Positions 2,224 to 40,580 of a DNA stretch of 41,753 nt are shown here, piece by piece. Source of the DNA: Thermoprotei archaeon (GTDB lineage: Archaea > Thermoproteota > Thermoprotei_A > Sulfolobales > NBVN01); assembly GCA_003661745.1 (NCBI GenBank), contig QMWS01000002.1, positions 1-41,753 of the forward strand, given 5' to 3'. Under the pieces are notes generated by a model that was not told the origin of the DNA, did not search any database, and saw only the letters and a list, made by a program, of their open reading frames with translations. The translations under genes were made by a program, and so were the position numbers. The first letter of the stretch is position 1, and every line of letters starts with the position of its first letter.

Positions 2224-2290
2224 TACGCTTCCTCCGAACTCACAGCGCGCGGGAGCCTGGTCGGCCCCCACGCGCGTTGATGCTGCTTAT

Positions 2291-2767: not shown

Positions 2768-2768
2768 T

Positions 2769-4855: not shown

Positions 4856-4856
4856 G

Positions 4857-5774: not shown

Positions 5775-7314
5775 TTCTCAACCTCCTCATCAGTTCATTC
5801 ACTTGCACTTCACGCTTTTGGCTGATAATGTCGAAGATGTGCTCCTCAATGCTGTCTCTCGTCAATATCACCACAGTTTCCACTTCCTCGGCCCTCTGCC
5901 CGATCCGATATATCCTGTCTTCCGCGTGGATATTCCCAGCCGGATGCCAGGCGAGGTCGAGAAAAATCGCCCGCCGAGCCGCGACCAGGTTGAGCCCCTC
6001 GCCACCGACGCCGTGCGTCGCTACCAGCGCCTGCGCGTCCTCCTCAAGCGCCGCAAGCGCACGCTCGCGCTCGCGTGGAGACACGCTCCCCGTGAGCAGC
6101 ACCGCGCGGATGCCCTCGGCGTTGAGCCGCTCGACGGCGCGCTTCGCGAGTTGCTCGAACATCGTGAAGACAACCGCCTTGCCGTCGCCCTCGCGGATGA
6201 CCTCGACCAGCGCGTCTAGCTTGCTGCCGCCCTTATAGTCAGGAAAGACCAGGGACGGATCCAGCGCCAGCTGCCGCAGGCGCGTGACCTCGCTAAGCGC
6301 GCCGTCCGACCACACTTCCTCGTTACCGAAGCGCACCCGGCCGGTCTCGAGCATCTCATCGTACAGCGCCGCCTGCCCAGCAGGCATCTGGTAGCTCACG
6401 ACCCGCCGCGTACGCGTCGGGAGCCCATCGAGCCTGTCCTTCTCCCGCCTTAGGACATACACCGAGAGGATACGCTCCAACGCCTCGCGCTCGCCGTCCT
6501 TGACCCCGCCGACCTTGATTCCGTAGCGCGTCTCGTGCACGTCGAAGAAGCGCCACGCGAACAACCAGTACGACGAAAAGCGCGCCGGATCGACAAGGTG
6601 GAGAAGGCTCCAAATATCCGACGCGACGTTGACCGTCGGGGACGCTGTCAGGAGGAATACCCAGTCCGCCTCCGCGCACATCCGCTTCAGCACGTCGAAT
6701 GTCTGCGTCTTCCGGTTCCGCGCATTGTGCGCCTCGTCCACGATGATGAGGTCAGCGTGCAGATCGTTCAGCAGAATCTGTGCGAAGTTGCAGATGAGGA
6801 ACTCATCAGTCCACGACCCCAGGATCTCCTGCCGCTCGTCCGCATTTCCCGTCAGCGCCAGCGGCGACCTGGTCGTCCAGCGACGGACGTGCTCCGCCCA
6901 GTCTGGGATCTTGGAGTCGTTACAAACGATAACCGCCCTGCGCGGCTTAGCAGCGTCTGCTGCAACTAGAGACATCACCGTTTTCCCAAGTCCTTGGCTA
7001 TCCGCCAGGATACCACGCCGCGCGGCCAGGAGCCAGCGCACCGCGACCCGCTGGTGCGGAAGAAGATCGTCGCGACCAGGGGCGTCGTCCTGCCCCGCGA
7101 GCGATAGGAGCTCCTCCTGACGCTCCCGTATCTCGCGGAACCGCACGCGCAGCGCAGGAGAGATTTGGACTCGACCGCGATTGTGCATGAGAATGCGGCG
7201 GGCGACGTCGCCGCATATAGGAAACGATCGAGGAGGTCTGCCGAAGGGGCAGATTTCTGGCGGGACGTCGCCCTTGAACATCATTCTATCACGATAGAGA
7301 TATAGCGTCCTCAT
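5692..7314 (-). CDS. SNF2-family helicase/translocase
   Basis: Motifs LADSQGLGKT (I), IIVDEAHNARN (II, DEAH), LLTASP (III), GGEGLNL (V) and AEDRIYRIGQ (VI). Its 3' end overlaps the next gene by 83 nt. Confidence 0.9.
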   Translation of the reverse strand: MRTLYLYRDRMMFKGDVPPEICPFGRPPRSFPICGDVARRILMHNRGRVQISPALRVRFREIRERQEELLSLAGQDDAPGRDDLLPHQRVAVRWLLAARRGILADSQGLGKTVMSLVAADAAKPRRAVIVCNDSKIPDWAEHVRRWTTRSPLALTGNADERQEILGSWTDEFLICNFAQILLNDLHADLIIVDEAHNARNRKTQTFDVLKRMCAEADWVFLLTASPTVNVASDIWSLLHLVDPARFSSYWLFAWRFFDVHETRYGIKVGGVKDGEREALERILSVYVLRREKDRLDGLPTRTRRVVSYQMPAGQAALYDEMLETGRVRFGNEEVWSDGALSEVTRLRQLALDPSLVFPDYKGGSKLDALVEVIREGDGKAVVFTMFEQLAKRAVERLNAEGIRAVLLTGSVSPRERERALAALEEDAQALVATHGVGGEGLNLVAARRAIFLDLAWHPAGNIHAEDRIYRIGQRAEEVETVVILTRDSIEEHIFDIISQKREVQVNELMRRLRSGKATASDAESEPAERDVVSAGMAPWV

Positions 7315-7680: not shown

Positions 7681-8052
7681 CTACTCGCCTCGCTGTTTAC
7701 GCCGCCACCGGAGGACATGCGCCAGCGCGTCGCGCGCGTGCCTTCCGCGTACCAGGGCGGCCGCGCACTGCCTGTCCAGCGCCCCCGCCCCAGGCGGCTG
7801 GAGGACGAGCCGTATGCCCTCCTCCTGGCATATCAGTGTGACCGCGCCGATGACCAGTAACGGATCCCTGTAATTGACCGCCCTGCCAGCCGTGCCGCGG
7901 AAGTCCTCCATGACCACGACGTCCGCGCCGCGGATCCAGTCGCGCAGCTCACCAAGCCCCCGGATCTCCGCCGACCGCACGACACCACCCTCCTCCCGCA
8001 CGACGCCCGTCGTCCCGCCAGGGTCAATCCCAACTACGATCTCGCTGCCCAT
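7681..8052 (-). CDS. RuvC-like Holliday junction resolvase
   Basis: VGIDPGGTTG and VVVMEDF acidic motifs of the RuvC/RNase H fold. I set the start at the ATG at 8052 (MGSEIV). The ORF-track extension to 8145 runs through the AT-rich repeat and is not credible. Confidence 0.75.
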   Translation of the reverse strand: MGSEIVVGIDPGGTTGVVREEGGVVRSAEIRGLGELRDWIRGADVVVMEDFRGTAGRAVNYRDPLLVIGAVTLICQEEGIRLVLQPPGAGALDRQCAAALVRGRHARDALAHVLRWRRKQRGE

Positions 8053-8056
8053 GCCC

Positions 8057-8152
8057 GAAATTCCCCCTTTATTTTTGAAGAGAGTGAATCTTATAAAGTT
8101 ATATATCGAACGCGCCTCAAAATTAAGGAGCGGATTGCTTGGCATTGTTTCC
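8057..8152 (-). promoter_or_regulatory. AT-rich promoter-like element, copy A, directly upstream of the replication operon
   Basis: About 95 bp and nearly identical to copy B. The core is shared with copy C at 38139. In minus orientation it reads ...GCGCGTTCGATATATAACTTTATAAGATTCACTCTCTTCAAAAATAAAGGGGGAATTTC. It contains TATATA and TATAAG -10-like hexamers and ends 5 nt before the RuvC ATG. Confidence 0.5.
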
Positions 8153-8165
8153 CCTCAGCCCGCCG

Positions 8166-8260
8166 GAAATTCCCCTTTATTTTTGAAGAAAGTGAATCTT
8201 ATAAAGTTATATATCGAACGCGCCTCTAATTTAAGGAGCGGATTGCTTGGCATTGTTTCC
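8166..8260 (-). promoter_or_regulatory. AT-rich promoter-like element, copy B (tandem with copy A, 109-bp offset)
   Basis: A direct repeat of copy A with only a few substitutions over about 95 bp, judged by eye. Confidence 0.5.
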
Positions 8261-8287: not shown

Positions 8288-8327
8288 GAATCTGCACTCG
8301 GACGCCTCAATCTCCGAGTGCAGATTC
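8288..8327. terminator. perfect 15-bp-stem hairpin at the end of the late (structural/lysis) operon
   Basis: GAATCTGCACTCGGA-cgcctcaatc-TCCGAGTGCAGATTC. It lies 38 nt beyond the lysin stop and upstream of the tandem AT-rich elements. The T-run (TTCTTTG) follows on the plus strand only. Confidence 0.6.
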
Positions 8328-10380: not shown

Positions 10381-10721
10381 TCGTCAGCCTCGTCGTCTTC
10401 TAGCTTAATCCCCAGCTGCTCGCAGAGATCAAGCACCTCGCGGCCGGACGCGGCGGGCCAGTCCTGCTTGGCCTCGACTCTCTGCTTGAGGAACGCGGCC
10501 AGATTGCGATCTTTGACCTCGATGTCCCATCTCTTGTTAGGATCGTTCCAGGTGAATCCTGTCGGAGTCGACCGCAGGCCGACCTCCTCCTGCTCGTCTT
10601 CGCTCATTTCGAGCAAGTCAATTAGCTTCAACGCCTTGTTGATCGTCCGCAGGTCGCCTTGGACAGAGTTCACAAGCATGAGCAGTTGCAACCGCTGCCA
10701 TGTCGTTAGATTGAGCTTCAT
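10377..10721 (-). CDS. hypothetical protein between fibre and lysin
   Basis: 114-aa ORF with RBS GGGAGG and an ATGA overlap with the lysin start. Acidic C-terminus. No transmembrane segment seen. Confidence 0.6.
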   Translation of the reverse strand: MKLNLTTWQRLQLLMLVNSVQGDLRTINKALKLIDLLEMSEDEQEEVGLRSTPTGFTWNDPNKRWDIEVKDRNLAAFLKQRVEAKQDWPAASGREVLDLCEQLGIKLEDDEADE

Positions 10722-10757
10722 CTCTACCTCCCTTGTGTGTATCGTTACAACAGCTGA

Positions 10758-13700
10758 TTAGCTGGCTGCTGCTAATCCGTGATGCTTTAGACATTCATTG
10801 ATTTGGCTGAGAAGTCGCCTTTCCTCATCACCATAAGTAGTATCAGGCTCTATGTCAAAGGCGCTATTTACATAGCGGCCATATACTACTCTGACACCAT
10901 TTACAAAATAAGCCCCTGAGCAATTGACATTACCGCTTACATCCAGCTGATGCTCGGGATCGAAATTACCGATACCAACCTTGCCGTTGAGAGTCATATA
11001 GATAGCGGTCTTGTCTATATCAGCTCCGGTTGCTACTATAATCCTACCCACATACGGTGCGCCGTGCGGAGCCTCTAGCCGGATGCTCCCTATTCCGTCT
11101 CTCTTTGCTCGTATCCTTGTCACAGCGTTTTTCCATACATCCAAATCCACGGCTGGAGAATATGTCCCAACACCGACATGTCCATCAGGATCGATGAATA
11201 AGGCGTCACTGCTTCCGTCATTTGTCAGCATGCGGATGTCATCTGCTTCTAAGGTCAGACGCCCATAGTTCAATCCCTTTTTGACCTTGATTGTCAGATA
11301 TCCCTCGCCTCCGGCGGGCCCACTGCTCTGAGCTATGTAGGCGACGGCATCGTCAAGAATATCCGAACCCCACTTGATCGCTCGGACATCATTGAACCCC
11401 CAGCCTGCTTGTAGCTTAATGCCCTTGGAATTCAGTTCGACTGCGCCTCCTCCTGCCATAGCCTTGCCAGTGGTGGCTTCGATGTAGAACTCTTTGGTGG
11501 TGGCGTCGCTGTAACCAGCAAGTTCACTGCTGCTTATTTCGATACGCGCTCCTCCAGGAATACCGACTGTAAGCTGACCATCGCAGGGATAGAATTCAAC
11601 ATCGTCAAAATACACAGTGGCCGCGTTGTCAGAGTCAATGTTCAAGGCAACTCTCGCGTAGCGTACTCCGTTGGGAGCAGTCGTTACTACCTCTTTTTTC
11701 TCCCAAGAGGTGCTGGCTGGAGAGACAATAGTCAGACTACCAATGACGGAACCAACGCGGTCATACCACTTTACACGGGCCCCCGCACCGCCCGTTCCAG
11801 TGCTATTCCTCACCCAAGCTGCTAAGTAGTAATTGCGACCCTCTTCTACGTAGATTGGTAAGGTATCTACTACTTCATAGCCGTTGACACCATCACCAGT
11901 AGCCTTTAGGCTATATCCGCCAGAGTGAGCTACTGTGTCATCAACCGTGGGAGTAAGTTCACGAATTCTCCACTCTGTTGTATCTCCTGTTTCGAATCCC
12001 GAGTTGGCTACAGCATTATGGCCACGCACGTTGATCTTGTTAGCAGTGATCGAGTGGGCATATATCTTGCCACCATCTATAAGGGTATAATCCTCGCTGT
12101 GTCGCCAATCGTCCGGTGACGTTGAACCTGAGATCAAGATGCGACCAGGTTCGATTAGAGTGGACGCTAAGTTGATCTTGTCTACAACCGTGTCAGCATC
12201 GACATTGCTCATGTCGGTTTTGGCTGCATCACCGCCGGTGACATATATCTGGCCCTGGACGATAAGAGCTGAACCGTTCCATTCGATCCGGTTGTCCCCG
12301 CTAGCATTGCCGAACCAGAAAGTTCCATCGGATGCGATATTGACCCGTTGAGTTGTGGCATCATATGCTTTGAGGCCATCATTGTCGATCTCGACTCGTG
12401 CACCGCCAGGAGAACCTACTAGTATTCGTCCATCTGCTAAATAGAACTCAGCGTCGTCGAAGTAGACGTTTGCGGTGTTCCCCGCCCGAATAGTCAGAAC
12501 AAACCATGCAGTTGTTGCTCCTGTGGGAGCTGTAACAACTGCTTCTTTTTTTGTCCAGGATGTTGAAGCACCGCTATAAGCTTGAGAGTAACTAATTACG
12601 GAGCCATCCTTGTCTCGCCATGTGATATAGCAACCCGCACTACCAGTTCCGGTGCTGTTGCGCACCCAAACACCGAAGTAGTACTTGCGTCCTTCTTCTA
12701 CTGCGAAACCTGTCTGTCTCGCTGGTATCACCTCAGAACCAGAGCTTCCCGTCGCTACTATCGAGTATTTACCGTTGTGAGGATTATACGTAGCGATACT
12801 ACCGGCTAGAGGATCCCAGGACGAGAGATCGCCGGTTTCGAATCCAGGATTTCCGAGCCAGTTTGCTCCATGAGCCAATAGAGCACTGGCTGTCACGGTG
12901 TTCGCATAGATATCTCCACCGTCAATCTTCGTAGTGTCGGTGGGATAAGCCCAGCCCGCCATGTCGTCCGCTGGCACGTCGTCGCTTCCGATGTAGACCA
13001 CGCCGTTGGCGTCAACTCTGAACCGTGGGTCGCTGGAGTTTGGCCCTAGCCAGAACAGAATGTCGCTACCTGACGCTGTTGGTAGCACCTCGCCTCGCAC
13101 GTTATCAGATGCGTCCACCCACTGCTGTTTGAGCCCGTGTATAATGGCGTTCTGGTCACTCAACAAGACATAATGGTCACTGTCCTTACCTGCCCAAAGA
13201 CCGTACTGCGCGCCGAGACCAGCCAGACCGTCTAGCTGCCCCAGACGCACGTGCGCCGTGTGGTTGGCGCCCGTGAATGGATCTGCTCCCTCCCAACTAA
13301 CCACGTCCAGGTACGGCGCGTAGTTGAGGTCAGCAGTGGCGAGCAAATAGCCCTGCCCGCTCTGGCCGTAGTCCGCCACCGCTACGCCCGCTTGGATCGT
13401 CACGCCTACGGAGCCGCTCTTGTGCGTGTACGTGTACCGCTGAGTGCCATCGCCCATGTCCGTCGGGTTGGTGACAACGCCCCACACGTCATACACGCCG
13501 TTGACGTACTCGCTCTTGATACGCACCCAATCGTTAGCGCTAAACAGGAAGCCGCCACCAGGTGGGTCGGTGATGTAGATGTAGGTGGTTCCATCGACCG
13601 CCGGCGTGGTGAAGTCCGCCGCCAGCTTGCCGCTGCTCTTGAAGATGCCCAACGTGCCTGCGTGCGCTTCTATCAGGTCTTTGACGAATACCGTGCAGTG

Positions 13701-15320
13701 CAGTTCGCCACGGATCCATGCGTTAGCGAATTCAACGTCGCCGTCGTGTGCAATCTGCCAGCCCTTGATCCCACTTTGGAAGTTAGCCGATTCGAGATCC
13801 CCCGCCTCGTTCACCTGGATCAGCGCGGTGCCGCCCTCGTCCTGCACCTCCCAGAGATTGGCAGTCTGGCTTCCGCTATTGCGCCGAACTGTGATGCCCT
13901 TGCGATCGTCGGCGCCAGTCCTCACGCCCAGGGCACCGTAGGTGCTTAGATCAGTACCAGCGTTGATACCGACCTTGTCGGCCGATGCGTCTACGAACAG
14001 CGTGTCCGTATCTACTGCAAGATCGTCATCCACCACGAGCGCGCCAGGCGTCCTCAGGATATTCGCTGCACTTCGATACAGCTGGGCATCTCCGCCGAGG
14101 AGGATGCCAGCGGCACTCCCCTGCGCAGGAAGTCTGAGCTGGCGGTTCGCGGTCAGCTCGAGGGCCGTGGCCCAGCTGCTGCCGTCATATGCCTCGATTG
14201 CGAAAGTCCGACCGGCGGCCGCGGCATTCGTGTAGTAGACAATGTTGACATTCCCACCATCGGTGGCGTGGTCGCCGCCGTAAAGCTCGATGTAGCCGCC
14301 GACCTGGTTGAAGCCGCCGAAGATCGAGATCGCCGACGCCGCGTCGCCGGACATGATTGTATCGACGGTCAAGTCCTGGTCTACTACGAGTGAATCCGGC
14401 GTCCTCAAGACGTTCGATGCGTCTCGATAGAGCTGAGTGTCTCCGCCGATGAACAGGCCATTGCTCGAACCCTGACCAGATATGCTGATAGTGCTGGTGG
14501 CTACCAGGTCTGGCAGGTTCAACGTCCCCGTCATTGTGTCGCCGGATTTTCTGACGAACAGATGCGAGAACGCCGCCGCGGCCACACGGAGTGCTACCCT
14601 GCTGTTGTAATCGCCCTCGCAGTAGAGTGTGACGGTAACATCGTTCCCAGAACCAGACACGTTCGCAAACAGCTTCAAGATCAGCCGATCGGACGTGTCG
14701 AGGTCAATGTCATTGGACACCGATGCGCTAAGAACCAGCTGGCTCAACGAGGATGAAAGTTCGTTGCTCTCCTCGCTGGTCATCAGTAAGGTCTCTGAGC
14801 CGAGCGCGTTGCGCTTATAAAGCTGCCAGTACAGCCTCGCGGTCTTGTTGCCTGATGCGAGCGCGAAGAACGTAGCGGTGTAGACGCCCAGGGACAAGAA
14901 CTCCAGTGACGGCTGCTCGCTCTCGGTGGCGAACGACCAGAGAAGTTGACCATCGCCGACCCCCAGCGGGCTGGAGACGAGGGTAGAAGCACTCTCGCCC
15001 GTCTCCTCGGGGAAGAGTGTGTAGTAGCCGCCGATATCGGAGCCGTTGTCTGATAAGAAGAAAGCCCAAGTAGATGCCGCGACCCCAATGTCAACATAGT
15101 TCTTCGTCGCGGCGTCCTGGTCTGCCTCGGGATCTTCCAAGTCTGTGATCTTGTGATCGCCCATTGAGAGATCGTCGGTCATCGGATCATTGCTGGCATC
15201 GAGCTTCAGATACGTACCGCTGAGATCCGGAATGTCCGATGTGGTGATGGTAGATATTATCTCAGTAGAGCTCTCCGTGATGGGCAGGTCGATCTCGCGT
15301 GGAGTTCTGCTCTTAGGCAT
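10758..15320 (-). CDS. tail fibre / receptor-binding protein with two carbohydrate-binding-module-like repeats
   Basis: 1520 aa, Gly/Ser/Thr-rich. It has repeated LYR(D/S)A.N.LRTP..LVVD.DL.VDT fibre motifs. Two GFETGD ... YFDD(A/V)EFY jelly-roll-like (CBM4/9-type) segments are present. It lies downstream of the tail genes. Confidence 0.85.
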   Translation of the reverse strand: MPKSRTPREIDLPITESSTEIISTITTSDIPDLSGTYLKLDASNDPMTDDLSMGDHKITDLEDPEADQDAATKNYVDIGVAASTWAFFLSDNGSDIGGYYTLFPEETGESASTLVSSPLGVGDGQLLWSFATESEQPSLEFLSLGVYTATFFALASGNKTARLYWQLYKRNALGSETLLMTSEESNELSSSLSQLVLSASVSNDIDLDTSDRLILKLFANVSGSGNDVTVTLYCEGDYNSRVALRVAAAAFSHLFVRKSGDTMTGTLNLPDLVATSTISISGQGSSNGLFIGGDTQLYRDASNVLRTPDSLVVDQDLTVDTIMSGDAASAISIFGGFNQVGGYIELYGGDHATDGGNVNIVYYTNAAAAGRTFAIEAYDGSSWATALELTANRQLRLPAQGSAAGILLGGDAQLYRSAANILRTPGALVVDDDLAVDTDTLFVDASADKVGINAGTDLSTYGALGVRTGADDRKGITVRRNSGSQTANLWEVQDEGGTALIQVNEAGDLESANFQSGIKGWQIAHDGDVEFANAWIRGELHCTVFVKDLIEAHAGTLGIFKSSGKLAADFTTPAVDGTTYIYITDPPGGGFLFSANDWVRIKSEYVNGVYDVWGVVTNPTDMGDGTQRYTYTHKSGSVGVTIQAGVAVADYGQSGQGYLLATADLNYAPYLDVVSWEGADPFTGANHTAHVRLGQLDGLAGLGAQYGLWAGKDSDHYVLLSDQNAIIHGLKQQWVDASDNVRGEVLPTASGSDILFWLGPNSSDPRFRVDANGVVYIGSDDVPADDMAGWAYPTDTTKIDGGDIYANTVTASALLAHGANWLGNPGFETGDLSSWDPLAGSIATYNPHNGKYSIVATGSSGSEVIPARQTGFAVEEGRKYYFGVWVRNSTGTGSAGCYITWRDKDGSVISYSQAYSGASTSWTKKEAVVTAPTGATTAWFVLTIRAGNTANVYFDDAEFYLADGRILVGSPGGARVEIDNDGLKAYDATTQRVNIASDGTFWFGNASGDNRIEWNGSALIVQGQIYVTGGDAAKTDMSNVDADTVVDKINLASTLIEPGRILISGSTSPDDWRHSEDYTLIDGGKIYAHSITANKINVRGHNAVANSGFETGDTTEWRIRELTPTVDDTVAHSGGYSLKATGDGVNGYEVVDTLPIYVEEGRNYYLAAWVRNSTGTGGAGARVKWYDRVGSVIGSLTIVSPASTSWEKKEVVTTAPNGVRYARVALNIDSDNAATVYFDDVEFYPCDGQLTVGIPGGARIEISSSELAGYSDATTKEFYIEATTGKAMAGGGAVELNSKGIKLQAGWGFNDVRAIKWGSDILDDAVAYIAQSSGPAGGEGYLTIKVKKGLNYGRLTLEADDIRMLTNDGSSDALFIDPDGHVGVGTYSPAVDLDVWKNAVTRIRAKRDGIGSIRLEAPHGAPYVGRIIVATGADIDKTAIYMTLNGKVGIGNFDPEHQLDVSGNVNCSGAYFVNGVRVVYGRYVNSAFDIEPDTTYGDEERRLLSQINECLKHHGLAAAS
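11495..12090 (-). repeat. internal duplication of the tail fibre, distal copy (approximate bounds)
   Basis: IDGGKIYAHSITAN...NSGFETGDTTEW...WVRNSTGTGGAG...YFDDVEFYPCDG...GGARIEI is parallel to the other copy. Confidence 0.7.
12340..12935 (-). repeat. internal duplication of the tail fibre, proximal copy (approximate bounds)
   Basis: IDGGDIYANTVTAS...NPGFETGDLSSW...WVRNSTGTGSAG...YFDDAEFYLADG...GGARVEI. The offset between copies is about 845 bp. Confidence 0.7.
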
Positions 15321-30141: not shown

Positions 30142-30746
30142 CTTTGCCTCACTCTCTTCCGTATGTCAGGCCCGCGTCGGCTACCATGCGGCTCACGCGT
30201 GATCGGTGACCACGGCCTCCTGCGCCTCCGCGACGGCCGCACCTCCACGCGCTCCTGCTTGAGCTCCCCAGCCGTTGCGTATACCAGCCATGACTGCGGC
30301 AAGATACACGCCCGCGGCTTCACGATGTGGAAAGCCCTGAGGAACGCCAGCCGCTCGTCCTCGCCCTTCAGACATTCCGACCGCCACGTGACCAGGAACT
30401 CCCGCCCCGCATCGTCGTTGCGCACGAACAGCAGCTCGTACCCGTGGAGCAGCTGCCTCAAGTCAAGCACAACCGACCTGGTTAGCTTTCGCTCATCCAC
30501 CGTGCCCACGTCCGCTGCAAGAGTACCGTAGTTCCAGAGTGGAACTGCCATCTCCCAGGTGTCAAGAAACGAGAAGCCAGCGTCGAGCAGTCTGACAGGT
30601 ATCTTCATCCCGTGCGCAAGGAACAGCGTCTTGTCACCCGACAGCTCCCAATCGTCCGCGCCGCTCCGCACACGGATGCTGTACGGCGCTCCGAGTTGGT
30701 TCGCGATGCCACTGGCGTCGTCTATCGTCGCGATCACATTCGTCAT
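30138..30746 (-). CDS. hypothetical protein, last gene of the glycan cassette
   Basis: I set the start at the ATG at 30746 (MTNVIATIDD), which gives an ATGA overlap with the methyltransferase stop. Its own stop overlaps the portal ATG. Arg-rich C-terminal tail. No motif recognised. Confidence 0.6.
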   Translation of the reverse strand: MTNVIATIDDASGIANQLGAPYSIRVRSGADDWELSGDKTLFLAHGMKIPVRLLDAGFSFLDTWEMAVPLWNYGTLAADVGTVDERKLTRSVVLDLRQLLHGYELLFVRNDDAGREFLVTWRSECLKGEDERLAFLRAFHIVKPRACILPQSWLVYATAGELKQERVEVRPSRRRRRPWSPITREPHGSRRGPDIRKRVRQR

Positions 30747-31195
30747 TTGCGCACCCTCATCCGCGCCAGGAAGCTCGTCTCGGCGTTGTTCAGCCAGGGC
30801 CCCTTGACAATCTCCCACTTCCGCGGCGTATACCAGTGGTACGCGCGCCCCGCCTTCCGATCAGGGTCGAAATAGTCGAGCGCCCCCGGCGAGAGATGCC
30901 AGACATGCGTCGGATCCCTGTACGAGGTCTCGCTGTTCCACATGGGCAGCTTGATGAACAGCTCCGCGCCAGGCCGCAGGATGCGCCAGCACTCGTCCAG
31001 CGCCTCGACCAGCGTGATCCGGAGATGCTCGAACACCGAATGCGCGATGACCACGTCGAACGACTCGTCCGACCAGGGCCACGGTCGCTCGTTGAGGTCG
31101 TGCGTCACGTCGATCTCCTCGCGGTGCTTGACGAGATCGTGGTTCACCGCCCCACTGACGATCGAATTCCCTGCTCCAAGATTCAGGATCTTCAC
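30743..31195 (-). CDS. class I SAM-dependent methyltransferase
   Basis: Motif I KILNLGAGN and FDVVIAHSVFEHL of Methyltransf_11 type. I prefer the GTG at 31195 because GAGGAGGAGG precedes it and it gives a GTGA overlap; the ORF-track start is 31369. Confidence 0.75.
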   Translation of the reverse strand: MKILNLGAGNSIVSGAVNHDLVKHREEIDVTHDLNERPWPWSDESFDVVIAHSVFEHLRITLVEALDECWRILRPGAELFIKLPMWNSETSYRDPTHVWHLSPGALDYFDPDRKAGRAYHWYTPRKWEIVKGPWLNNAETSFLARMRVRK

Positions 31196-31965
31196 GCCTC
31201 CTCCTCTTCGAGCCATACTGCATATGGCGTCCGCTCTATCTCCGCCCGCACGGCGCCCCAGTTCTCGATGATCTCCGGCAGCGGCTGTGGGTTCACGCGG
31301 CGCAAATGGCAATGCAACATAGCCTGCGGCACGCCGAGGAAGTCGCAGATGCGGCTCGACACGTCCCACGGGATCCCCGTCGCCTCACCGTGCCCTGACC
31401 ACGCGATATCCTCGTATGTGAGCTCGAGCAGCTGAGAGAACTCCGCCAGTTTCGTCTTCGCGAACTCGTCCTGCTCACGCAGTTCTTCAATAGCCCTGAT
31501 GATAGACCGCGGCGCCAAGGACACCCGCTCGCGCATCGTGACCGCGCGGAATGTGTGTTGCGGCAGCGTAATGTGACCCGCGCGCGCCTTGCAGTTCAGC
31601 AGGAAGCTCACGGCCTGACGCAGGTAGTTTTCGCGCCGAAGATGAATCACAGCAGGCTGCGCCCTCACCAGGTACTCCCAGACGCCGTCTAGGAATGCCT
31701 GCCGGTATGTGAGTTTGCACATGCTCACATGATAACCAGTTTGGTCGAGCAGCGCCTGCAAGAGATCTACGCGGGTGATCCCGTCTAGGCAGTCGAGCCA
31801 CACGCTCCTGTAATGCAGCGGCTCGCCGCGGTCGCAGAAGATGTGCGGGTGATTACTCAGGCAATGTGCCAGGAACGTCCCCCCGCTTCGCAGCGACGCG
31901 ATGATTACCGCCGGTCGTGCGATGCCCCTGGTCATGTCGTTCTCGGTTATGCTCTCCGCTATCAT
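31192..31965 (-). CDS. Stf0-like sulfotransferase
   Basis: VIIASLRSGGTFL resembles a 5'-phosphosulfate-binding loop. HLRRENYLRQAVS resembles a 3'-phosphate-binding RR..Q.VS motif. I set the start at the ATG at 31965, which gives an ATGA overlap with the upstream stop. Confidence 0.7.
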   Translation of the reverse strand: MIAESITENDMTRGIARPAVIIASLRSGGTFLAHCLSNHPHIFCDRGEPLHYRSVWLDCLDGITRVDLLQALLDQTGYHVSMCKLTYRQAFLDGVWEYLVRAQPAVIHLRRENYLRQAVSFLLNCKARAGHITLPQHTFRAVTMRERVSLAPRSIIRAIEELREQDEFAKTKLAEFSQLLELTYEDIAWSGHGEATGIPWDVSSRICDFLGVPQAMLHCHLRRVNPQPLPEIIENWGAVRAEIERTPYAVWLEEEEA

Positions 31966-32789
31966 CTCCTCAGCTCCTCGTTGTACGCTCGAACCGCCTC
32001 GATGAGCCGCGCCGGCCGCCCCGTCCTCCTTGCCCACGCGCACAGGTTCGCCGTGTCCTTCGGCAAGCACTTGCCGCCGAAGCCGCGGTTCTCCGGATAC
32101 ACATAGGTGTGACTCCGCGACACCCGCGGGTCAGCCAGCCACAGCTCGCGCAGCTCGTGCCAGTCTACACCAGCCGCCGCGGCGAGATCATAGAATTGAT
32201 TGCAAAATGCGACCTTCGTCGCCAGCCAGGAGTTTTCCATCAACTTGCACAGCTCCGCCGTGCGCGCATCGGTCTGGTAGATGCGCAGCGACGAGTTGGT
32301 GACCAGCGTCCACGCCGTCGCGAATGCCCGCGTCACCTGCCGCGGCCCGCCCAGGATCACGAATGGCAGGCTGTTGCGGAGCGGGTGGTCAACCGTCTCG
32401 CCGTAGTACTCCGGCGAGAAGCAGGTGTTGCTCCCCAGCCACTCGGTCGTCCCGACCTCGACCGTGCTCTTAACGCACCAGTAGCGTACGCGATAATTCC
32501 AGCGCTCATACGCGTGGATGACTTCCGAGCAGTCGCAGCTCCCATCCTCCGCCTCGGGCGTCGGCACGCAGATGAACCCGAGCTCCCAATCCTTACGCTC
32601 ACCCTCAGGGAACGCCGCCAGGTCGTCCGCCACCCGCCGGACGACGCCGTCTACGTCCACGTAGTCCGCATCCGCGAAGAACCGCCCGATCTGCCGACCG
32701 ACATGGCCATAGCCGACGATGAGCGTCGGCGGGTGATGATTGACAACCTCTGGATGCGGCTTAGGCACCATGCTTTCGCTCCCACTCAC
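31962..32789 (-). CDS. nucleotide-sugar (UDP-glucose/GDP-mannose type) dehydrogenase, short form
   Basis: LIVGYGHVGRQIG is the Rossmann motif. GFGGKCLPKD is the catalytic Cys motif. The ORF ends about 30 aa after that motif. The start is either the GTG at 32789 or the ATG at 32771. Confidence 0.75.
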   Translation of the reverse strand: MSGSESMVPKPHPEVVNHHPPTLIVGYGHVGRQIGRFFADADYVDVDGVVRRVADDLAAFPEGERKDWELGFICVPTPEAEDGSCDCSEVIHAYERWNYRVRYWCVKSTVEVGTTEWLGSNTCFSPEYYGETVDHPLRNSLPFVILGGPRQVTRAFATAWTLVTNSSLRIYQTDARTAELCKLMENSWLATKVAFCNQFYDLAAAAGVDWHELRELWLADPRVSRSHTYVYPENRGFGGKCLPKDTANLCAWARRTGRPARLIEAVRAYNEELRR

Positions 32790-34443
32790 TCACCTTCCTC
32801 CACGCCCTTTCACTGTCGATCCGCCCCGGGATTGCGCCCGACCACCTGCGCGCCTGCTTCGGGAAATGCAGAATGCCCGCGGTCTCCACGCCCTCGGAGT
32901 ATGCCGGGAACGTGTTCCACTCGTTCCCCAGGACAAGCGTCCGCGGCGGGTCAGCATACAGCGCCATAAGCAGCGGCCCCTGGTCGCGCTGCGCAAACAC
33001 CTCCCACTCCTCGCGCCACCGCTTGAAGAACCGCTCCACACGCTCGCAGCGCCTGAACGCCCACACGCCACCATTCAGCTGAATCGTGTGAAGTGTCTTG
33101 ACAGCCCTACGCACCTTCCGCATCTCCGCGGCGTTATTTCGCCTGCGGTACGAGAACATCGTGTCCATGAGGTGCGGGTCTTTGCAGATGATGAATTCCC
33201 AACCGTCCTCGATCCACTCGAAGAACCGATACACCGGCGCGGTCACCAGGGTGTCGGCGTCGAGGTACAGCACCGATTCCCACTCCGCCGGACTCAGCTC
33301 GTATGCGCGAAGCTTAGCCCGCCTGCCGCCGATGTCACTGTCCTCCTGCTGGACGAAGACGTCCTCCAGCCCCAGCGGCTCCGCGCCGCATAGGCAAACG
33401 GGGATGTCCGGCATATGCTCCTTGATGCTCTCCAAGAGTCTGCTTGCGCACTTGCGCGCAGGGCCGCCGAACGCGACGACGTAAATCCCCCGCGTCGAGC
33501 CCGTGCCGTGATCTATCGGGTCAGCCATCTTGACCTTCACCTTCGCCTTCTTCCGCACCGTCTGGCGAACCCGCGGCGCGATAGCCTGGAACGCCTGGTC
33601 GTGCGCGGCGACGAAGTTCTCGACAGAGTGCTCCGCCGTCGCGTCACGGAGCGCATCTCTGTCAACACTCCTGCACGTGTCCATGGCCAGGAGCAGCGCC
33701 AGTATCATGCTCTTCGCGTCGCCGCGATTGAAGCGATGTATGCCATTGACGTCCGGCAGCTCATCGTGGAGCCCGACGCCCTTCGAGATCACCACGGGCA
33801 CGCCGCACGCCAGCGCCTCCAGGGTCGGCATCGGGATCCCCTCGACCCGCGACGGCACCAGCAGGATGTCCAAGCCGCGATAGAAGTCAGGCATCTCCGC
33901 CCACTTGTAGCGCCTCGTCGGCACCGGCCAGCCACGGCCGCTCGCTCGCCACTCCACGCGCCCGCCCAGCACCCCCGCCGCGAAGCGAACCAGATTCTCG
34001 CCCTTCCGCTGATTACGATACGTATACCCCGAGACGCCTATGACCACCGGCCCCGACCGCTTGCTCCTGGCGGGCGTGAATCGATCCCGCTCAACCGGCG
34101 CGGGCACCTGCACCGTCGGCCCGCGCGGAGACAGCAGGTCGGTGTAGATCCCAGCGGTGGTTATCCGCAGATCCACCCGCCGCCCCACCGAATCGAATAA
34201 CTTCGCCTTCGAGTTACCAGGGGGCTCCTCCTCGCGATGCGTGAAATACGCCGCCACAGGGACGTCGGGCCAGGGCTTCAGCCGCTGCGCCTCGAAATAC
34301 GCAAGCATGTACAGCGCGTCCGCGTCGTCCTCGATCACGCCATATCGCAGGCTCCATCCCAGGCGCTCCGCTAGATACCTCGCCATGCGCGGGATCACGC
34401 GGTCGTCCCGCCAGTTTCGGCACCAAATCTGCACGTTCACCAC
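32761..34443 (-). CDS. two-domain glycosyltransferase (GT-B/GT4-like N-terminal half plus GT-A/GT8-like C-terminal half)
   Basis: N-terminal half: LLVPSRVEGIPMPTLEALACGVPVV (EX7E). C-terminal half: VLYLDADTLV (DxD) and NGGVWAF. The GTG start overlaps the TerL stop. Confidence 0.8.
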   Translation of the reverse strand: MVNVQIWCRNWRDDRVIPRMARYLAERLGWSLRYGVIEDDADALYMLAYFEAQRLKPWPDVPVAAYFTHREEEPPGNSKAKLFDSVGRRVDLRITTAGIYTDLLSPRGPTVQVPAPVERDRFTPARSKRSGPVVIGVSGYTYRNQRKGENLVRFAAGVLGGRVEWRASGRGWPVPTRRYKWAEMPDFYRGLDILLVPSRVEGIPMPTLEALACGVPVVISKGVGLHDELPDVNGIHRFNRGDAKSMILALLLAMDTCRSVDRDALRDATAEHSVENFVAAHDQAFQAIAPRVRQTVRKKAKVKVKMADPIDHGTGSTRGIYVVAFGGPARKCASRLLESIKEHMPDIPVCLCGAEPLGLEDVFVQQEDSDIGGRRAKLRAYELSPAEWESVLYLDADTLVTAPVYRFFEWIEDGWEFIICKDPHLMDTMFSYRRRNNAAEMRKVRRAVKTLHTIQLNGGVWAFRRCERVERFFKRWREEWEVFAQRDQGPLLMALYADPPRTLVLGNEWNTFPAYSEGVETAGILHFPKQARRWSGAIPGRIDSERAWRKVSEWERKHGA

Positions 34444-35642: not shown

Positions 35643-36033
35643 CCACGACCTCCTCAACCAGCTTCAGCTTCACCTCGCCGTCGTGCATGTGCCGAACCCG
35701 CTGGCCGTACACCTCGGGACGGCGTGATGTGAGAATAAACGTCAATAATTTATCGCTACTTTCTTGAGCACGCTTCCAGGCAATAGCCTCGAGACCATCC
35801 AGCGCCTCTTCCAGCGCCTCGTCCCACGCCGCCTCGAACGTCTTCCAGCGCCGTCGCGCACAGTACGCACCGCCTCGCGTAATACCAGCGGCCTGACAGG
35901 CGGCGCGCACGTTCGCGGTGTTCCGCAGCGCCGCGATAAACCTGGCCATCCACGGCCGCGGCAAGTCGCGCCTCCGGCCGATCAGCGGCCCCAGCTCCCC
36001 TGTACCGCCTTTTCTGCTCTCCCTCTTGCTCAT
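35596..36033 (-). CDS. terS: terminase small subunit (HTH type)
   Basis: 145 aa directly upstream of terL. It has an HTH-like segment NVRAACQAAGITRGGAYCARR. Confidence 0.7.
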   Translation of the reverse strand: MSKRESRKGGTGELGPLIGRRRDLPRPWMARFIAALRNTANVRAACQAAGITRGGAYCARRRWKTFEAAWDEALEEALDGLEAIAWKRAQESSDKLLTFILTSRRPEVYGQRVRHMHDGEVKLKLVEEVVVAGAEDQAESEAESV

Positions 36034-37487
36034 ACCTCCAACTCCGGATTCAAACCATCATCTGCGAATCTCTCCAGGGCGACGGCGACGTAGCGAGGCT
36101 CGCGTTCTGTGGCTATGCATCTCCGCCGCAATCGCTCGCACGCCAGAAGCGTCGTCCCCGACCCGAGGAACGGCTCCCACACCAGGTCGCCCTGCTCGCT
36201 ATAGACCTCGATCGCGCGCAGCGGCAGCTCCAGCGGGAACGCTGCGACGTGATATCGCAACGGCGAGCCTTCGGCGTCGTGCGTACTCCAGACTGCGTGG
36301 ACGGACATGCGCCACTTCCGGCGTGGCAGGCGGCGCTCCTTGCCGCCCTTCGACCTGAACGTCCATACGAAATCATATCCCTCGATGGGCACTCCTGAAA
36401 ATACCCTCCACAAATTCTCCAGCCACTGCTGGGCTACAATATCGTCCTCCAGCAACTCCGTGGATCGTTGCGGCACCCGCCTGATAACCAGCTCCTCCGG
36501 CTCGTCGTCCTCGCCCCCGGGCGCGCGGAACGACCACACGTACTCCCACTCCTGATGGTGTGGGATCGTTGAGTGGTACGACCAGAACGGTGCCGGAAGG
36601 CGCTCGAAGGGCTTCCGCCAGATCCGATTCGCCCAAAGCTTCCAACCGTGACGACGGAAGCGCTCGTTGTAGATGCACGACATCAGGAAGACGCCGTAAC
36701 TCGCGTCCCCCGTAATGCGCTCGACGATGCTCTTGACGTAGATGTCGCCGAAGTTGACGACGAAGTAGCCGCCAGGAATCACAACACGCGCGCCGACCTC
36801 AGCAGTCTTGTCGATCAGCTCCACCAGGTCGCCGAACGCCTCCCCCTCCTCGTACTCCTTACCCACGCCGTAGGGCGGCGACGTCACCGCCATGCGCGCC
36901 CGCTCACCAGCGAAAAGCGCCTCCACCGCCTCGATGTCCGTGCAGTCGCCCACAAGCAGCTTGTGCTCCCCGACCCGCCAGACCTGACCAGGCTCGACCC
37001 CCCACTTCTCGCGCAGCTCCTCCGCCTCGTCCACGCGCGGCTCAGCGGTCTCGTCGGAGTCCGAATCGAACTCCCTACCTATCCCTTCCGCAAGGCTGTC
37101 GAGCAAGTCGCGCACCGCGTCGTTGCCCGTCTGCACGTCGCTCAGAAGATCCGCCAGCGCCTCGGGATCCGTCTCCGCCGCCGCAGCCAGCGGATCCAGC
37201 GTCGCGAGCGTAAGCTTCTCCTCGTCCTCATCGAGGTCAACGTACAGGACAGGTATGGTCGGCTCTTTGCGTGACAGGGCCAGCGCCACGCGCAGGTGGC
37301 CGTCCAGGATGAAGCCGGTGCGCTTGTTCACGATGACCTGCTGCACCCAGCCAACCTCGTCAAGAACGCCCTCCAACGCTCCCCGCTGCGCATCAGGGTG
37401 CGCGCGCCAGTTCCGCGGATTCGCGACGAGATCGCCAGGTGGCACGTCCGCACTACCAACTATCCGATTCCTCCAACGTCGCTTCAC
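36030..37487 (-). CDS. ParB-like nuclease domain fused to a beta-class N6A/N4C DNA methyltransferase
   Basis: N-terminus: NPRNWRAHP...VIVNKRTGFILDGHLRV (ParB/Srx fold). Middle: VTSPPYG (motif IV). C-terminus: VWEPFLGSGTT (motif I). Confidence 0.85.
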   Translation of the reverse strand: MKRRWRNRIVGSADVPPGDLVANPRNWRAHPDAQRGALEGVLDEVGWVQQVIVNKRTGFILDGHLRVALALSRKEPTIPVLYVDLDEDEEKLTLATLDPLAAAAETDPEALADLLSDVQTGNDAVRDLLDSLAEGIGREFDSDSDETAEPRVDEAEELREKWGVEPGQVWRVGEHKLLVGDCTDIEAVEALFAGERARMAVTSPPYGVGKEYEEGEAFGDLVELIDKTAEVGARVVIPGGYFVVNFGDIYVKSIVERITGDASYGVFLMSCIYNERFRRHGWKLWANRIWRKPFERLPAPFWSYHSTIPHHQEWEYVWSFRAPGGEDDEPEELVIRRVPQRSTELLEDDIVAQQWLENLWRVFSGVPIEGYDFVWTFRSKGGKERRLPRRKWRMSVHAVWSTHDAEGSPLRYHVAAFPLELPLRAIEVYSEQGDLVWEPFLGSGTTLLACERLRRRCIATEREPRYVAVALERFADDGLNPELEV

Positions 37488-38087: not shown

Positions 38088-38138
38088 AAATCTACCACAT
38101 CTCCCGCCAGCGATATAACAGCATTTCCTCGCCCGCGC

Positions 38139-38215
38139 GAAATTTCCCCTTTATTTTTGAAGAGAATGAATCTTATAAAGTTATATATCGAACGCGCCCT
38201 TAGTTTAAGAAGGCA
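38139..38215 (-). promoter_or_regulatory. AT-rich promoter-like element, copy C, upstream of the packaging/structural operon
   Basis: It shares the ~62-bp core GAAATT(T)CCCCTTTATTTTTGAAGAG(A/G)(A/G)TGAATCTTATAAAGTTATATATCGAACGCGCC with copies A and B. The distal part diverges. Confidence 0.5.
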
Positions 38216-38297: not shown

Positions 38298-38335
38298 GGC
38301 GCGAGGCCACCGCCCCCTCCCGGTGGCCCCGCGCC
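38298..38335 (-). terminator. GC-rich hairpin after the 38354 gene (terminator-like, no U-tract)
   Basis: GGCGCGAGGCCACCG-ccccctcc-CGGTGGCCCCGCGCC, with one mismatch. It lies between an early gene stop and element copy C. Confidence 0.45.
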
Positions 38336-38731: not shown

Positions 38732-39079
38732 CTAGACGACCGCGAGCGCGCGAGCGCCGAGGATCCGTCCGTTCTCGTCCCGGATCAGCGCCGCCGGAAT
38801 CACGACCAGGTAGCCAGCGTCCTCCGGCGTCGGCCCGAGCGCCTGCGCCAGGAGCGCCGAGACCACGTAGACGTGGCCCGGCCTGAACTCTGGCAGGCCC
38901 TGCGGCTTGCCGAAACGCTTCCGGATCACCGGCACGTCCACGCCCTCCGCGCAGACCGTGCCGACGACCTCTGTCTCCTCCTCCAGCCGCGGCGGGCTGT
39001 CGCAGCGGTCGATCGTGATCGACAGCCCGTTGCCGTTGCAGATGGTCACCGGGTGTGGAGTTAGATTAACAATCTTCAT
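38732..39079 (-). CDS. hypothetical protein whose RBS and first codons form the terminal copy of the 69-bp array
   Basis: MKIVNLTPHPVTICNG... RBS GGAGTTGGAGTG. The ORF is also open upstream to 39151 and 39205 through two degenerate repeat units. Confidence 0.65.
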   Translation of the reverse strand: MKIVNLTPHPVTICNGNGLSITIDRCDSPPRLEEETEVVGTVCAEGVDVPVIRKRFGKPQGLPEFRPGHVYVVSALLAQALGPTPEDAGYLVVIPAALIRDENGRILGARALAVV

Positions 39080-39862
39080 CACTCCAACTCCATCCGGTCG
39101 TGGCGCGTCGGCTGGCACCAAGTCTGGATTTGAACTAATTAATTTCATCATTTCAACTCCATCGAGCCGCGGCGCTCGGCGGCGCCCCTGGTCGGCGTCG
39201 GGCATGGAGTTGAACTAATTAATTTCATCAACTCAACTCTAGACTCCGTGTCGACCTCGGCTGACGCGAAGTCTCGACTTAGACTGATTAATTTCATCAA
39301 CTCAACTCCATCGCGCGCTGCGCCTCCGGCCGACCCGAAGTCTCGACTTAGACTAATTAATTTCATCAATTCAACTCTAGACTTCGCGGCGTCCCCGGTC
39401 GACGCGAAGTCTCGACTTAGACTAATTAATTTCATCAACTCAACTCTAGACTTCGCGTCGCCCTCGGTCGACCCGAAGTCTCGACTTAGACTAATTAATT
39501 TCATCAACTCAACTCCATCGCGCGCGGCGTCCTCGGCCAACGCCAGATCTAGACTTAGACTAATTAATTTCATCAACTCAACTCTAGACTTCGTGCCGAC
39601 CTCGGCCAGCGCCAGATCTAGACTTAGACTAATTAATTTCATCAACTCAACTCTAGACTTCGTGCCGACCTCGGCCGACCCGAAGTCTCGACTTAGACTA
39701 ATTAATTTCATCAACTCAACTCGAGACTTCTGGTCGGCCTCGGCCGACCAGAAGTCTCGACTTAGACTAATTAATTTCATCAACTCAACTCTAGACTTCG
39801 TGCCGACCTCGGCCAACGCGAAGTCTCGACTTAGACTAATTAATTTCATCAACTCAACTCCG
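39061..39862 (-). repeat. tandem array of 12 units of about 69 bp
   Basis: Units start at 39061, 39130, 39210, 39279, 39348, 39417, 39486, 39555, 39624, 39693, 39762 and 39831. Each has a conserved AT-rich core TTAGACTAATTAATTTCATCAACTCAACTC plus a variable GC-rich segment flanked by inverted arms. Confidence 0.95.
39148..39849 (-). other. open frame through ten array units (23-aa repeat MKLISLSRDFxSAExxxKSRVEL); coding status unresolved
   Basis: The period is 69 bp, which is 23 codons. The ATG at 39849 shares one base with the upstream TGA, and the stop overlaps the next ATG. Against coding: the core uses AT-rich codons (TTA, CTA, ATT, AGT, AAA) and the opposite strand is also open. Confidence 0.3.
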
Positions 39863-40580
39863 GATCCAGGTGCTCTGCGGTGTACCCCGCGGGTACCGCG
39901 ACCCGCATGCTGACGTGCCCGCCGTGGTACCCCCTGCTGTGCACCACGGACAAGACCTTAACGGCGTCCGTGTCGCCGTCAATCTCCAAGAGATCTAACT
40001 GCCACTCCTTGTACCGCCCCCCTGGTGAGATATAGGCCGCCACGCGGCCATCGTGATCCCGGACAACCACCGGCATCTCCCAGAAGCCCGCGCCGATTTG
40101 ACGGTTCGTCGGCCCGCCGAAGTTGACGGCGACGATTTCCACGTCCGCGTTCTCCTCGGTCTCCTCAATCGCCATCAGCTCCTCTTCGACCCTGTCCAAC
40201 CTCTTGGCGTCGCCGGGCCAATGCGCGCGGACGTACTCCTGCGCCGCCGGGATCGTGACGCGGAGGGCCTCGGCGACGTCGATCCATCGATCGATCGGCC
40301 GTGGGAAGCCGACCGCTTTCCGGAGACCTTCGACGAAGCGGCCGGTCTCCCAGCCCTCGTACCCTGCGATCGCCCGCACGCCCGGGGCCAGCTTCATGCG
40401 ATAATGGTTCGCCGACCACTTGCCGTTTTTCGTGTACCCGTGGCCGACGACCACGGCCACGCCGGGGATCGTCTCCCCGCAGAAGTGGTGCACGCGGTCG
40501 TCCTTGATCAGGACGAGCCACCGCTCACGCCGCCGGTTCCCGATCCCGTCCGACCACTCTAATCCTCTTTCTTCCGCCAT
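39849..40580 (-). CDS. hypothetical protein
   Basis: 243-aa ORF with RBS AGGAGGACAGAA. Its last codons lie in the first array unit. No motif recognised. Confidence 0.65.
   Translation of the reverse strand: MAEERGLEWSDGIGNRRRERWLVLIKDDRVHHFCGETIPGVAVVVGHGYTKNGKWSANHYRMKLAPGVRAIAGYEGWETGRFVEGLRKAVGFPRPIDRWIDVAEALRVTIPAAQEYVRAHWPGDAKRLDRVEEELMAIEETEENADVEIVAVNFGGPTNRQIGAGFWEMPVVVRDHDGRVAAYISPGGRYKEWQLDLLEIDGDTDAVKVLSVVHSRGYHGGHVSMRVAVPAGYTAEHLDPELS

Follow-up and report, generated by a model that had tools for sequence, protein, structure and literature searches.

A variable tandem array chained to a Crn4b-like ring nuclease gene in a phage genome: a possible coding minisatellite descended from a gene start

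Within a 41,753-nucleotide stretch of phage DNA (contig QMWS01000002.1 of GenBank assembly GCA_003661745.1, filed under Thermoprotei archaeon; the whole stretch is hereafter the window), a dozen copies of a 69-bp unit stand in tandem between two genes, the second of which encodes a Crn4b-like ring nuclease. On sequence grounds, this array is firmly shown to be a lineage-specific expansion of the translation-start region of the Crn4b-like gene, and it is as firmly shown that the array lies in frame and chained to both of its neighbours and that its copy number and the GC-rich half of its unit are unstable. We read the block as a young, hypervariable coding minisatellite in the translational coupling chain of the ring nuclease, a reading to which we would give a probability of about 0.45. 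We infer that the array is most likely translated within that chain, and that it would thereby influence the number of ribosomes reaching the ring nuclease gene.

The existence of a 69-bp tandem array, which an initial annotation of the window had claimed, is agreed upon by three separate counts. Tandem Repeats Finder reports it at 39214-39860 (period 69, 9.4 copies, 86% matches, score 905), a separate repeat search finds 9-10 copies in register at 69-nt spacing, and the 15-mer GATGAAATTAATTAG occurs 11 times, always within 39135-39850, where shuffles give an expectation of 0.15 and none reaches 11. Plus-strand unit starts (39061, 39130, 39210, then every 69 nt up to 39831) reproduce the spacing of 69, 80 and nine times 69 bp given at the outset, and the units are built as had been described, from an AT-rich core containing the palindrome AATTAATT and a GC-rich segment. 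The count of twelve units stands in part: eleven carry the core, and the twelfth, a degenerate copy, supplies the next gene with its real start. Inverted arms, said usually to bound the GC-rich segment, are found in 7 of 9 regular units, the remaining two (39519-39587 and 39312-39380) ending in GCGCGCGATGG with no right arm; in a count of 14 regular units, the right arm is absent from 3. The block is indeed compositionally unlike its surroundings, with a GC content of 0.49-0.53 against ~0.62 elsewhere in the window. Three points had been missed: that 69 nt is 23 codons and the minus-strand frame is open; that every unit has a Shine-Dalgarno-like (SD-like) motif and an ATG; and that the next gene actually begins in the twelfth unit. 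Nor can it be maintained that the block belongs to no standard feature class, since it is a minus-strand open reading frame (ORF) already called by gene callers.

All convincing genes of the window are encoded on the minus strand, and the array is therefore read in that direction too. So read, each unit runs (C/A)T(A/G/C)GAGTTGAGTTG, then ATG AAA TTA ATT AGT CTA AGT, then a GC-rich stretch of ~36 nt, and closes with ...AAGT; an SD-like GAG or GGAG is thus followed 8 nt further on by an ATG, then by AT-rich codons and a GC-rich imperfect palindrome. Because 69 nt is 23 codons, the block forms an open frame of 233 aa, the ATG of which (39849) stands 8 nt after a GGAG and overlaps by a single base the TGA that closes the upstream 243-aa gene (TGATG). 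A frame shift caused by the extra 11 nt of unit u10 brings the array ORF to an end at an ATGA junction, where its stop (TGA, 39150-39148) overlaps an ATG at 39151 that is in frame with the nuclease gene and 23 codons ahead of the latter's conserved start at 39079. Gene callers applied to public assemblies give exactly these three chained genes in two alleles, with an array ORF of 233 aa here and of 142 aa in another strain, and report a 139-aa form of the nuclease from the ATG at 39151. Overlapping stops and starts of 4 nt and 1 nt are common elsewhere in the genome. An open frame, a start codon, an SD-like motif and chained neighbours, as expected of a protein-coding sequence, are thus present, and likewise in the second allele.

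The descent of the array from a gene start is legible at its downstream end. The 69 nt around the true start of the nuclease gene are identical at 50 of 69 positions to u11 and to a regular unit, the alignments scoring 21 and 11, respectively, against -11 +/- 4.5 for shuffles, an excess of more than 5 sd, and a gradient runs from the nuclease gene via u11 and u10 to the regular units, with MKLISSNPDLV (u11) and MKLISSTPCPT (u10) as intermediates. The twelfth copy, with GGAGTTGGAGTG ATG AAG ATT GTT AAT CTA ACT CCA CAC encoding MKIVNLTPH, is where the downstream gene truly begins, and the array thus arose by serial duplication of a translation-start region; the duplicated 69-nt piece takes in the last 13 nt of the upstream gene (with the SD-like GAG/GGAG and the overlapping stop), together with the ATG and ~19 initial codons of the nuclease gene. 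Of 41 gene starts in the window, that of the nuclease gene is the richest in AT over its first 21 nt (24% GC against a median of 52%), and this explains the AT-rich array core (19% GC): its 'foreign' composition is inherited from the gene start.

Other assemblies of the locus, recovered by exact-protein look-ups, bear out the copy-number variation that the initial annotation had proposed as a check. The source samples are ERZ1742239, ERZ27227320, JGI 3300033150/3300033156 and SRR6823441. One European Nucleotide Archive contig equals the window. A second allele (allele B), identical in two independent Joint Genome Institute samples, has 7 cores against 11 and is a mosaic of reshuffled GC segments with one 72-nt unit, the additional 3 nt of which keep the frame; the assembly of a third sample, in which a segment of the unit-4 type directly abuts the flank, breaks within the array. 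The flanks of the two alleles are identical at 959 of 959 and 336 of 338 positions and units 10-11 at 162 of 165; both alleles have retained the ATGA junction, the 80-nt unit and the older pair u10-u11. A comparison of 13 regular units gives 26 polymorphic sites out of 69, unevenly divided between the core (3 of 30) and the variable half (23 of 39; hypergeometric P=2.3e-5), for which mean pairwise identities are 98.5% and 79%, respectively. Each of the three polymorphic sites in the core falls at a third codon position (ATT/ATC, GAG/GAA and GTT/GTC; P ~0.03). The alleles differ at three sites in u10-u11, two of them outside the polymorphic core sites (TGC/TGT, synonymous, and a conservative I>V), and an AGA/CGA change is synonymous; counting the u10 allele differences, 5 of 6 changes are at third positions and one is the conservative I>V (P ~0.02-0.03). 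Taken at the level of codons, this pattern of substitution modestly favours protein-level constraint on the core. For the variable half, the ratio of nonsynonymous to synonymous polymorphism (pN/pS) comes to 1.8 in the ORF frame, compared with 0.5-0.8 in the remaining minus-strand frames and 2.0 in the plus-strand frame that shares its third positions, and GC content is 0.74 at third positions (GC3) against 0.60-0.62 at positions 1 and 2; this half is either under diversifying selection or unconstrained.

The gene to which the array leads is likely, from its similarity to proteins of known structure, to be of Crn4b type, a candidate enzyme against type III CRISPR and against the cyclic-oligonucleotide-based antiphage signalling system (CBASS). 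Its 115-aa product resembles solved Crn4 proteins over its full length, matching Crn4b (PDB 9r7b) at E 8e-8 (residues 2-114 against 8-115) and Crn4a (9sma) at E 2.4e-6. The stretches NLTPH and IRDENGRI (RDxxGRIxGxRAL) align with the same motifs of Crn4b and Crn4a, so that the T-x-H and Arg motifs are kept, and homologues in phages and metagenomes begin at a conserved MxIVNLTPH; in the array units S-x-D replaces T-x-H, and the Thr and His are lost. Crn4 is a ring nuclease that degrades cyclic oligoadenylates (cOAs), with conserved Thr, His and Arg residues (Chi et al. 2025, PMC12830947). Crn4b is found in a few phages and plasmids, where it is likely an anti-CRISPR, and some of these orthologues carry N-terminal extensions of 60-80 aa with no assigned function (PMC12830947). 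Coordinates of the array and its neighbours are collected in Table 1.

Table 1. Features of the array and its flanking genes (window coordinates; -, minus strand)
Feature	Position	Strand	Remarks
Whole tandem array	39061..39862	-	11 units with core GAGTTGAGTTGATGAAATTAATTAGTCTAAGTC and a degenerate 12th copy, the true gene start
Regular units u1-u9, 69 nt each	39243..39863	-	core ~98.5% identical between units, GC-rich half ~79%
Minus-strand starts of u1-u9	39863, 39794, 39725, 39656, 39587, 39518, 39449, 39380, 39311	-	
Unit u10, 80 nt	39163..39242	-	reads MKLISSTPCPTPT..., against MKIVNLTPHPVTI in the nuclease gene
Unit u11, 69 nt	39094..39162	-	in frame with the ring nuclease gene; ATG at 39151
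Unit u12	39025..39093	-	real SD GGAGTTGGAGTG, ATG at 39079, first codons MKIVNLTPH of the Crn4b-like gene
Perfect 17+17 palindrome, unit u2	39723..39758	.	GAGACTTCTGGTCGGCC-nn-GGCCGACCAGAAGTCTC; other units have 2-10 mismatches in the same register
12-bp near-palindrome, 16 copies	39235..39832	.	plus strand AAGTCTCGACTT / AACTCTAGACTT; two per unit, alternating 34/35-bp spacing
Array ORF, 233 aa	39849..39148	-	23-aa repeats MKLISLS(R/L)D(F/L)xxxxxxx(K/R/E)(S/D)(R/G)VEL
Crn4b-like ring nuclease gene, 115 aa	38732..39079	-	alternative in-frame start 39151; NLTPH near N-terminus, IRDENGRILGARAL near C-terminus
Upstream gene, 243 aa	39849..40580	-	last codons (..PELS, TGA) within u1; conserved family

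At least 114 members, at 41-53% identity, make up the family of the upstream 243-aa protein, several of them from metagenome-assembled genomes of Patescibacteria. The AlphaFold model of the 243-aa protein is confident (predicted local distance difference test, pLDDT, 92.9) and has no match among solved structures (best Foldseek E 0.2); a helix-turn-helix (HTH)-like stretch at about residues 97-136 is accompanied by weak matches to the Lac-repressor headpiece (E 0.7-0.8), and the gene is possibly another anti-defence or regulatory gene. No similar array lies beside homologues of the 243-aa gene at ~50% identity (loci L005-L009), nor beside the phage Crn4b homologues of P318, Scottie and Mgbh1. 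The 243-aa gene, the array and crn4b are nearly identical between strains, and the second strain diverges by ~15% more than 960 nt upstream (L003 1-281) and ~380 nt downstream (L012, ~379 nt past the crn4b ATG), so that the three behave as a conserved cassette in mosaic genomes. Further downstream, at 36030-37487 on the minus strand and just before the small terminase gene, a ParB-N domain is fused to an N6/N4 DNA methyltransferase, which is not the usual form of a partition protein.

If the array is a coding minisatellite within the coupling chain, it would be transcribed together with its neighbours, and ribosomes ending the 243-aa gene would restart at the first array ATG, to be joined by some that start internally at GGAG-bearing units. 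Translation through the repeats would melt the hairpins, and ribosomes would terminate at the ATGA junction and re-initiate on the nuclease gene. The array would then govern the number of ribosomes arriving at crn4b, a quick dosage knob would be supplied by unequal crossing-over among units (7 to 11 copies observed), and a helical polypeptide of 23-mer repeats would be a co-product. Because Crn4 activity can trigger Panoptes guard systems (PMC13577387), Crn4 dosage matters both ways, and this supplies a rationale for tuning it. A bolder form of the idea, which we hold to be improbable, makes the array a tandem bank of start modules and hairpins by which ribosomes are loaded onto the nuclease gene or the time of their arrival is set, with copy number (7-11) as a contingency-style rheostat balancing cOA destruction against tripping the guards that sense cOA depletion. 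In a variant, the transcript itself would be a decoy RNA, acting together with the nuclease to counter type III CRISPR.

A number of observations weigh against the coding-minisatellite reading. The argument from codon phase rests on six substitutions, and since the two strands share their third codon positions, the strand has to be chosen from context. No purifying selection is visible in the variable half at its pN/pS of 1.8, and an ORF built of stop-free 69-nt units stays open automatically. The core codons TTA, ATT, AGT and CTA are rare for this genome, and the internal SD-like motifs are mostly weak (AGAG) and predicted to be mostly base-paired (unpaired probability 0.02-0.32); the idea that start regions are held open in the RNA finds no support, both SD and start regions being predicted as mostly paired. 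The array ORF has no relatives among 1.84 billion protein representatives, an exhaustive search returning three unrelated repeat proteins, and its single-sequence AlphaFold model is poor (pLDDT 47), so that it has neither a homologue nor a confident fold. A word-index search gave no match, the query itself included, for which repeat or bias filtering is probably responsible, and matches to Pfam and PHROG proved to be repeat artefacts (0 matched stretches).

In falling order of likelihood, the rivals to the coding-minisatellite reading are a functionless minisatellite, an independent repeat protein, an array of RNA modules and an array of DNA sites. In the first, slippage and unequal crossing-over at a quasi-palindrome would have produced a neutral or selfish repeat, tolerated because its 69-nt units keep the frames of the operon; we consider this unlikely, if the least unlikely of the four. 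It would account for the variation of copy number and unit order between near-identical strains, for the absence of covariation beyond unit u2, and for u2 itself, whose palindrome is perfect and which is set apart from u3 by a cluster of five changes of a kind typical of template-switch 'correction'. The lack of a homologue in any collection searched also favours it: the search for the unit in phages and metagenomes suggested at the outset gave no match to array or core, with none by megablast or blastn in phages and plasmids and none for exact two-copy core patterns in viral, metagenome or genome collections; all of these evidently lack the strains found by protein look-up, so that the result is uninformative on close relatives. 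Two two-copy core patterns were absent from 185,579 species genomes. A by-product is harder to reconcile with variation so uneven between the halves (3/30 against 23/39), a pattern that calls for constraint on the core or else for a mutation hotspot restricted to the GC half, with core substitutions that keep codon phase, and with the retention of the 80-nt unit, the ATGA junction and u10-u11 in both alleles. Improbable by a further step is an independent repeat protein, its conserved hydrophobic half (RVELMKLISLS) and hypervariable loops making a multivalent binder or anti-defence factor to which the coupling with crn4b is incidental. An 'unusual repeat protein' was the last of the four roles first suggested for the block and comes closest. 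Core changes that are only synonymous or conservative speak for it, although recent homogenisation would equally give near-identical core nucleotides; so does the contrast of pN/pS between the ORF frame and the other minus-strand frames (1.8 against 0.5-0.8), but the variable residues coincide with the DNA palindrome; and the regular 19-residue helices predicted for the product come from a model of low confidence (pLDDT 47). One indel preserves the frame and the array sits within a conserved cassette holding an anti-defence gene, against which must be set that the ORF is an orphan with codons unusual for this genome.

Structured RNA modules, with GC hairpins between AU-rich cores acting as RNase III processing or mRNA-stabilising sites or as decoy RNA that joins the ring nuclease against type III CRISPR effectors, are less probable again. 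Although the minus-strand RNA folds at -277.9 kcal/mol (z -15.5 against shuffles, compared with -8.4 for the plus strand), single units fold at -16 to -41 kcal/mol with u1-u9 more stable on the minus strand (u10 being the exception), and G.T outnumbers A.C by 18 to 8 at mismatched palindrome positions, palindrome pairing (83.5%) does not rise above column shuffles (82.4%), 37 of 500 of which reach the observed value. Double changes come essentially from the one perfect-palindrome unit, the recombinant unit B5 has more mismatches, and the right arm is lost in the 3 of 14 regular units mentioned above. Rfam gave no match at the gathering threshold, with generic sub-threshold microRNA-hairpin matches at E<=10, and neither a covariance-model match nor covariation, as expected of a known structured RNA, was found; the structured-RNA role first suggested is therefore weak, for all that the palindrome is present. 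The 33 + 36 nt layout, sized like a CRISPR repeat and spacer and beside an anti-CRISPR candidate, is offset by 'spacers' that are mutually related (mean 79%), by the absence of terminator tails and by the lack of any CRISPR array with either core half in 185,579 species genomes. Far down the scale of likelihood lies a cis-acting DNA site array (an iteron origin, a sopC-like centromere or an operator array) bound via the core or the 12-bp boxes. There are 17 of these near-palindromic 12-mers at 34/35-bp spacing, the seventeenth at 39120-39131, and the sole further match in the window, at 29229, could be put down to chance; the palindrome AATTAATT lies in an AT-rich island of a GC-rich genome, the 243-aa protein with its HTH-like stretch and weak Lac-repressor headpiece matches is a candidate binder, and the lambda origin likewise sits within coding sequence. 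Genes for PrimPol and an SNF2 helicase lie on the same strand at 814-7314, away from the array, whose immediate neighbours are the Crn4b-like gene and the conserved 243-aa gene, not those of an iteron origin. The units, moreover, descend from a gene start and not from a binding site, boxes and core are absent from promoter-like regions and the rest of the genome, and nothing links the boxes to a binding protein. With 69 bp amounting to 6.57 helical turns, successive units face different sides of the helix; copy number varies freely, and homologues of the 243-aa gene have no such array nearby. The origin or centromere role first proposed fares no better, for there is no initiator gene and no ParA/ParB pair adjacent: no ParA was found among 20 proteins scanned, the sole ParB-like domain is that fused to the methyltransferase 1.5 kb away, and the array lacks the adjacent ParA-ParB or ParR operon with cognate repeats that marks a partition centromere. 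There is no parS-like site in the array and no DnaA box within 4 kb, and cumulative GC skew is monotonic across the window with no inflection, weak evidence because all genes are co-oriented.

Scans for other elements found no tRNAs, and inside the array no promoter-like sites (sigma-70-like hexamers) or terminator-like sites (hairpin and T-tract). The phage has a promoter-like element of its own, unrelated to the array: three copies of a ~75-nt AT-rich sequence, GGCGCGTTCGATATATAACTTTATAAGATTCAyTyTCTTCAAAAATAAAGGGGAATTTC, lie at 8045-8260 and 38135-38215 on the minus strand, two of them forming a 108-bp tandem duplication, with hairpins just upstream (~8290-8325 and 38300-38330). They look like promoters of two transcription units, although sigma-70 spacing could not be fitted. 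A GC content of 0.47-0.56 at 10400-13200, the 3' (C-terminal) half of a 1520-aa ORF (10758-15320) that is presumably a tape measure or tail protein, suggests a mosaic or acquired segment. Genes for a glycosyltransferase, a UDP-glucose dehydrogenase-like protein and a methyltransferase (30746-34443, minus strand) stand between the large terminase and portal genes, an unusual place for sugar-modification genes. Another assembly (L004 1-75) runs 75 nt past the last base of the window; as this extension is not found at the other window end, the window is not a simple closed circle as given, and its ends share only a short CGCGGAACT motif. An unrelated metagenomic protein of 546 aa, P0150, has about eight 57-aa repeats, each starting MMSAF..., and may be another tandem duplication of a gene start.

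Should the coding-minisatellite reading be true, the array would be a natural example of a new ORF, and possibly of a new regulatory layer, born by repeated duplication of a translation start, inside an anti-CRISPR/anti-CBASS cassette and still changing between co-circulating strains. It would link the instability of tandem repeats to the dosage of a viral ring nuclease, a dosage that published work shows can be both protective and self-defeating, and would caution annotators that a coding minisatellite may pass for an 'iteron array'. Should the array prove inert, it is a mere curiosity of phage genome plasticity.

Set beside known systems, the array shares features with several. Like sopC of the F plasmid (twelve 43-bp repeats) and iteron origins (lambda ori, P1, P4 crr), it offers a dozen direct repeats with an inverted repeat in an AT-rich context; unlike them, it has no adjacent gene for a cognate binding protein, is not in helical phase, and consists of units homologous to a gene start with substitutions in codon phase. 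Enterobacterial repetitive extragenic palindromes and bacterial interspersed mosaic elements (REP/BIME) similarly alternate GC-rich imperfect palindromes with conserved linkers in operons, in up to ~12 copies, but REPs are dispersed at many loci in alternating orientation, and dispersed palindromes of this type were rejected here because core and 12-bp box occur in the array only (the match at 29229 aside), at one locus and all in direct orientation. An integron attC site was likewise set aside: GTTGAGT fits GTTRRRY, but the putative R' and R'' boxes are, by eye, non-complementary. CRISPR mini-arrays and Racr (PMC10651486) have in common with the array constant parts of 33 nt and variable parts of 36 nt, carried on a phage beside an anti-CRISPR candidate; a CRISPR array or Racr mimic was rejected, however, as the variable parts here are interrelated (mean identity 79%) and palindromic and no CRISPR repeat family or genomic array matches the core, Rfam giving no CRISPR direct-repeat match even at E<=10. 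Viral Crn4b proteins with N-terminal extensions (PMC12830947) resemble the present case in that a Crn4b-type gene is carried on a phage, but the extra sequence here is a repeat array in a different frame, except for u11, whereas in Paenibacillus phage Scottie and Bacillus phage Mgbh1 the extensions lack repeats and bear no relation to it. Translational coupling in phage operons (TGATG, ATGA) relies on the same overlaps that flank the array ORF on both sides and are frequent in the window, although here a repetitive ORF of 700 nt with up to 10 internal copies of a start context has come between genes originally coupled. In the 'genomic accordions' of poxviruses, the anti-host gene K3L is amplified; the array too is a tandem amplification of variable copy number at an anti-defence locus, but of the start region only and not of the whole gene. 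With coding minisatellites and contingency repeats, finally, it shares a unit that is a multiple of 3 nt, a frame kept in both alleles (including the unit with 3 additional nt), copy number and unit order that vary between near-identical strains, and a place in a cassette of host-parasite conflict; it differs from coding minisatellites in that its repeat is the translation-start region of a neighbouring gene, with a potential start in each unit, and in that its ORF, instead of forming a domain of that gene, stands apart from it and is coupled to it.

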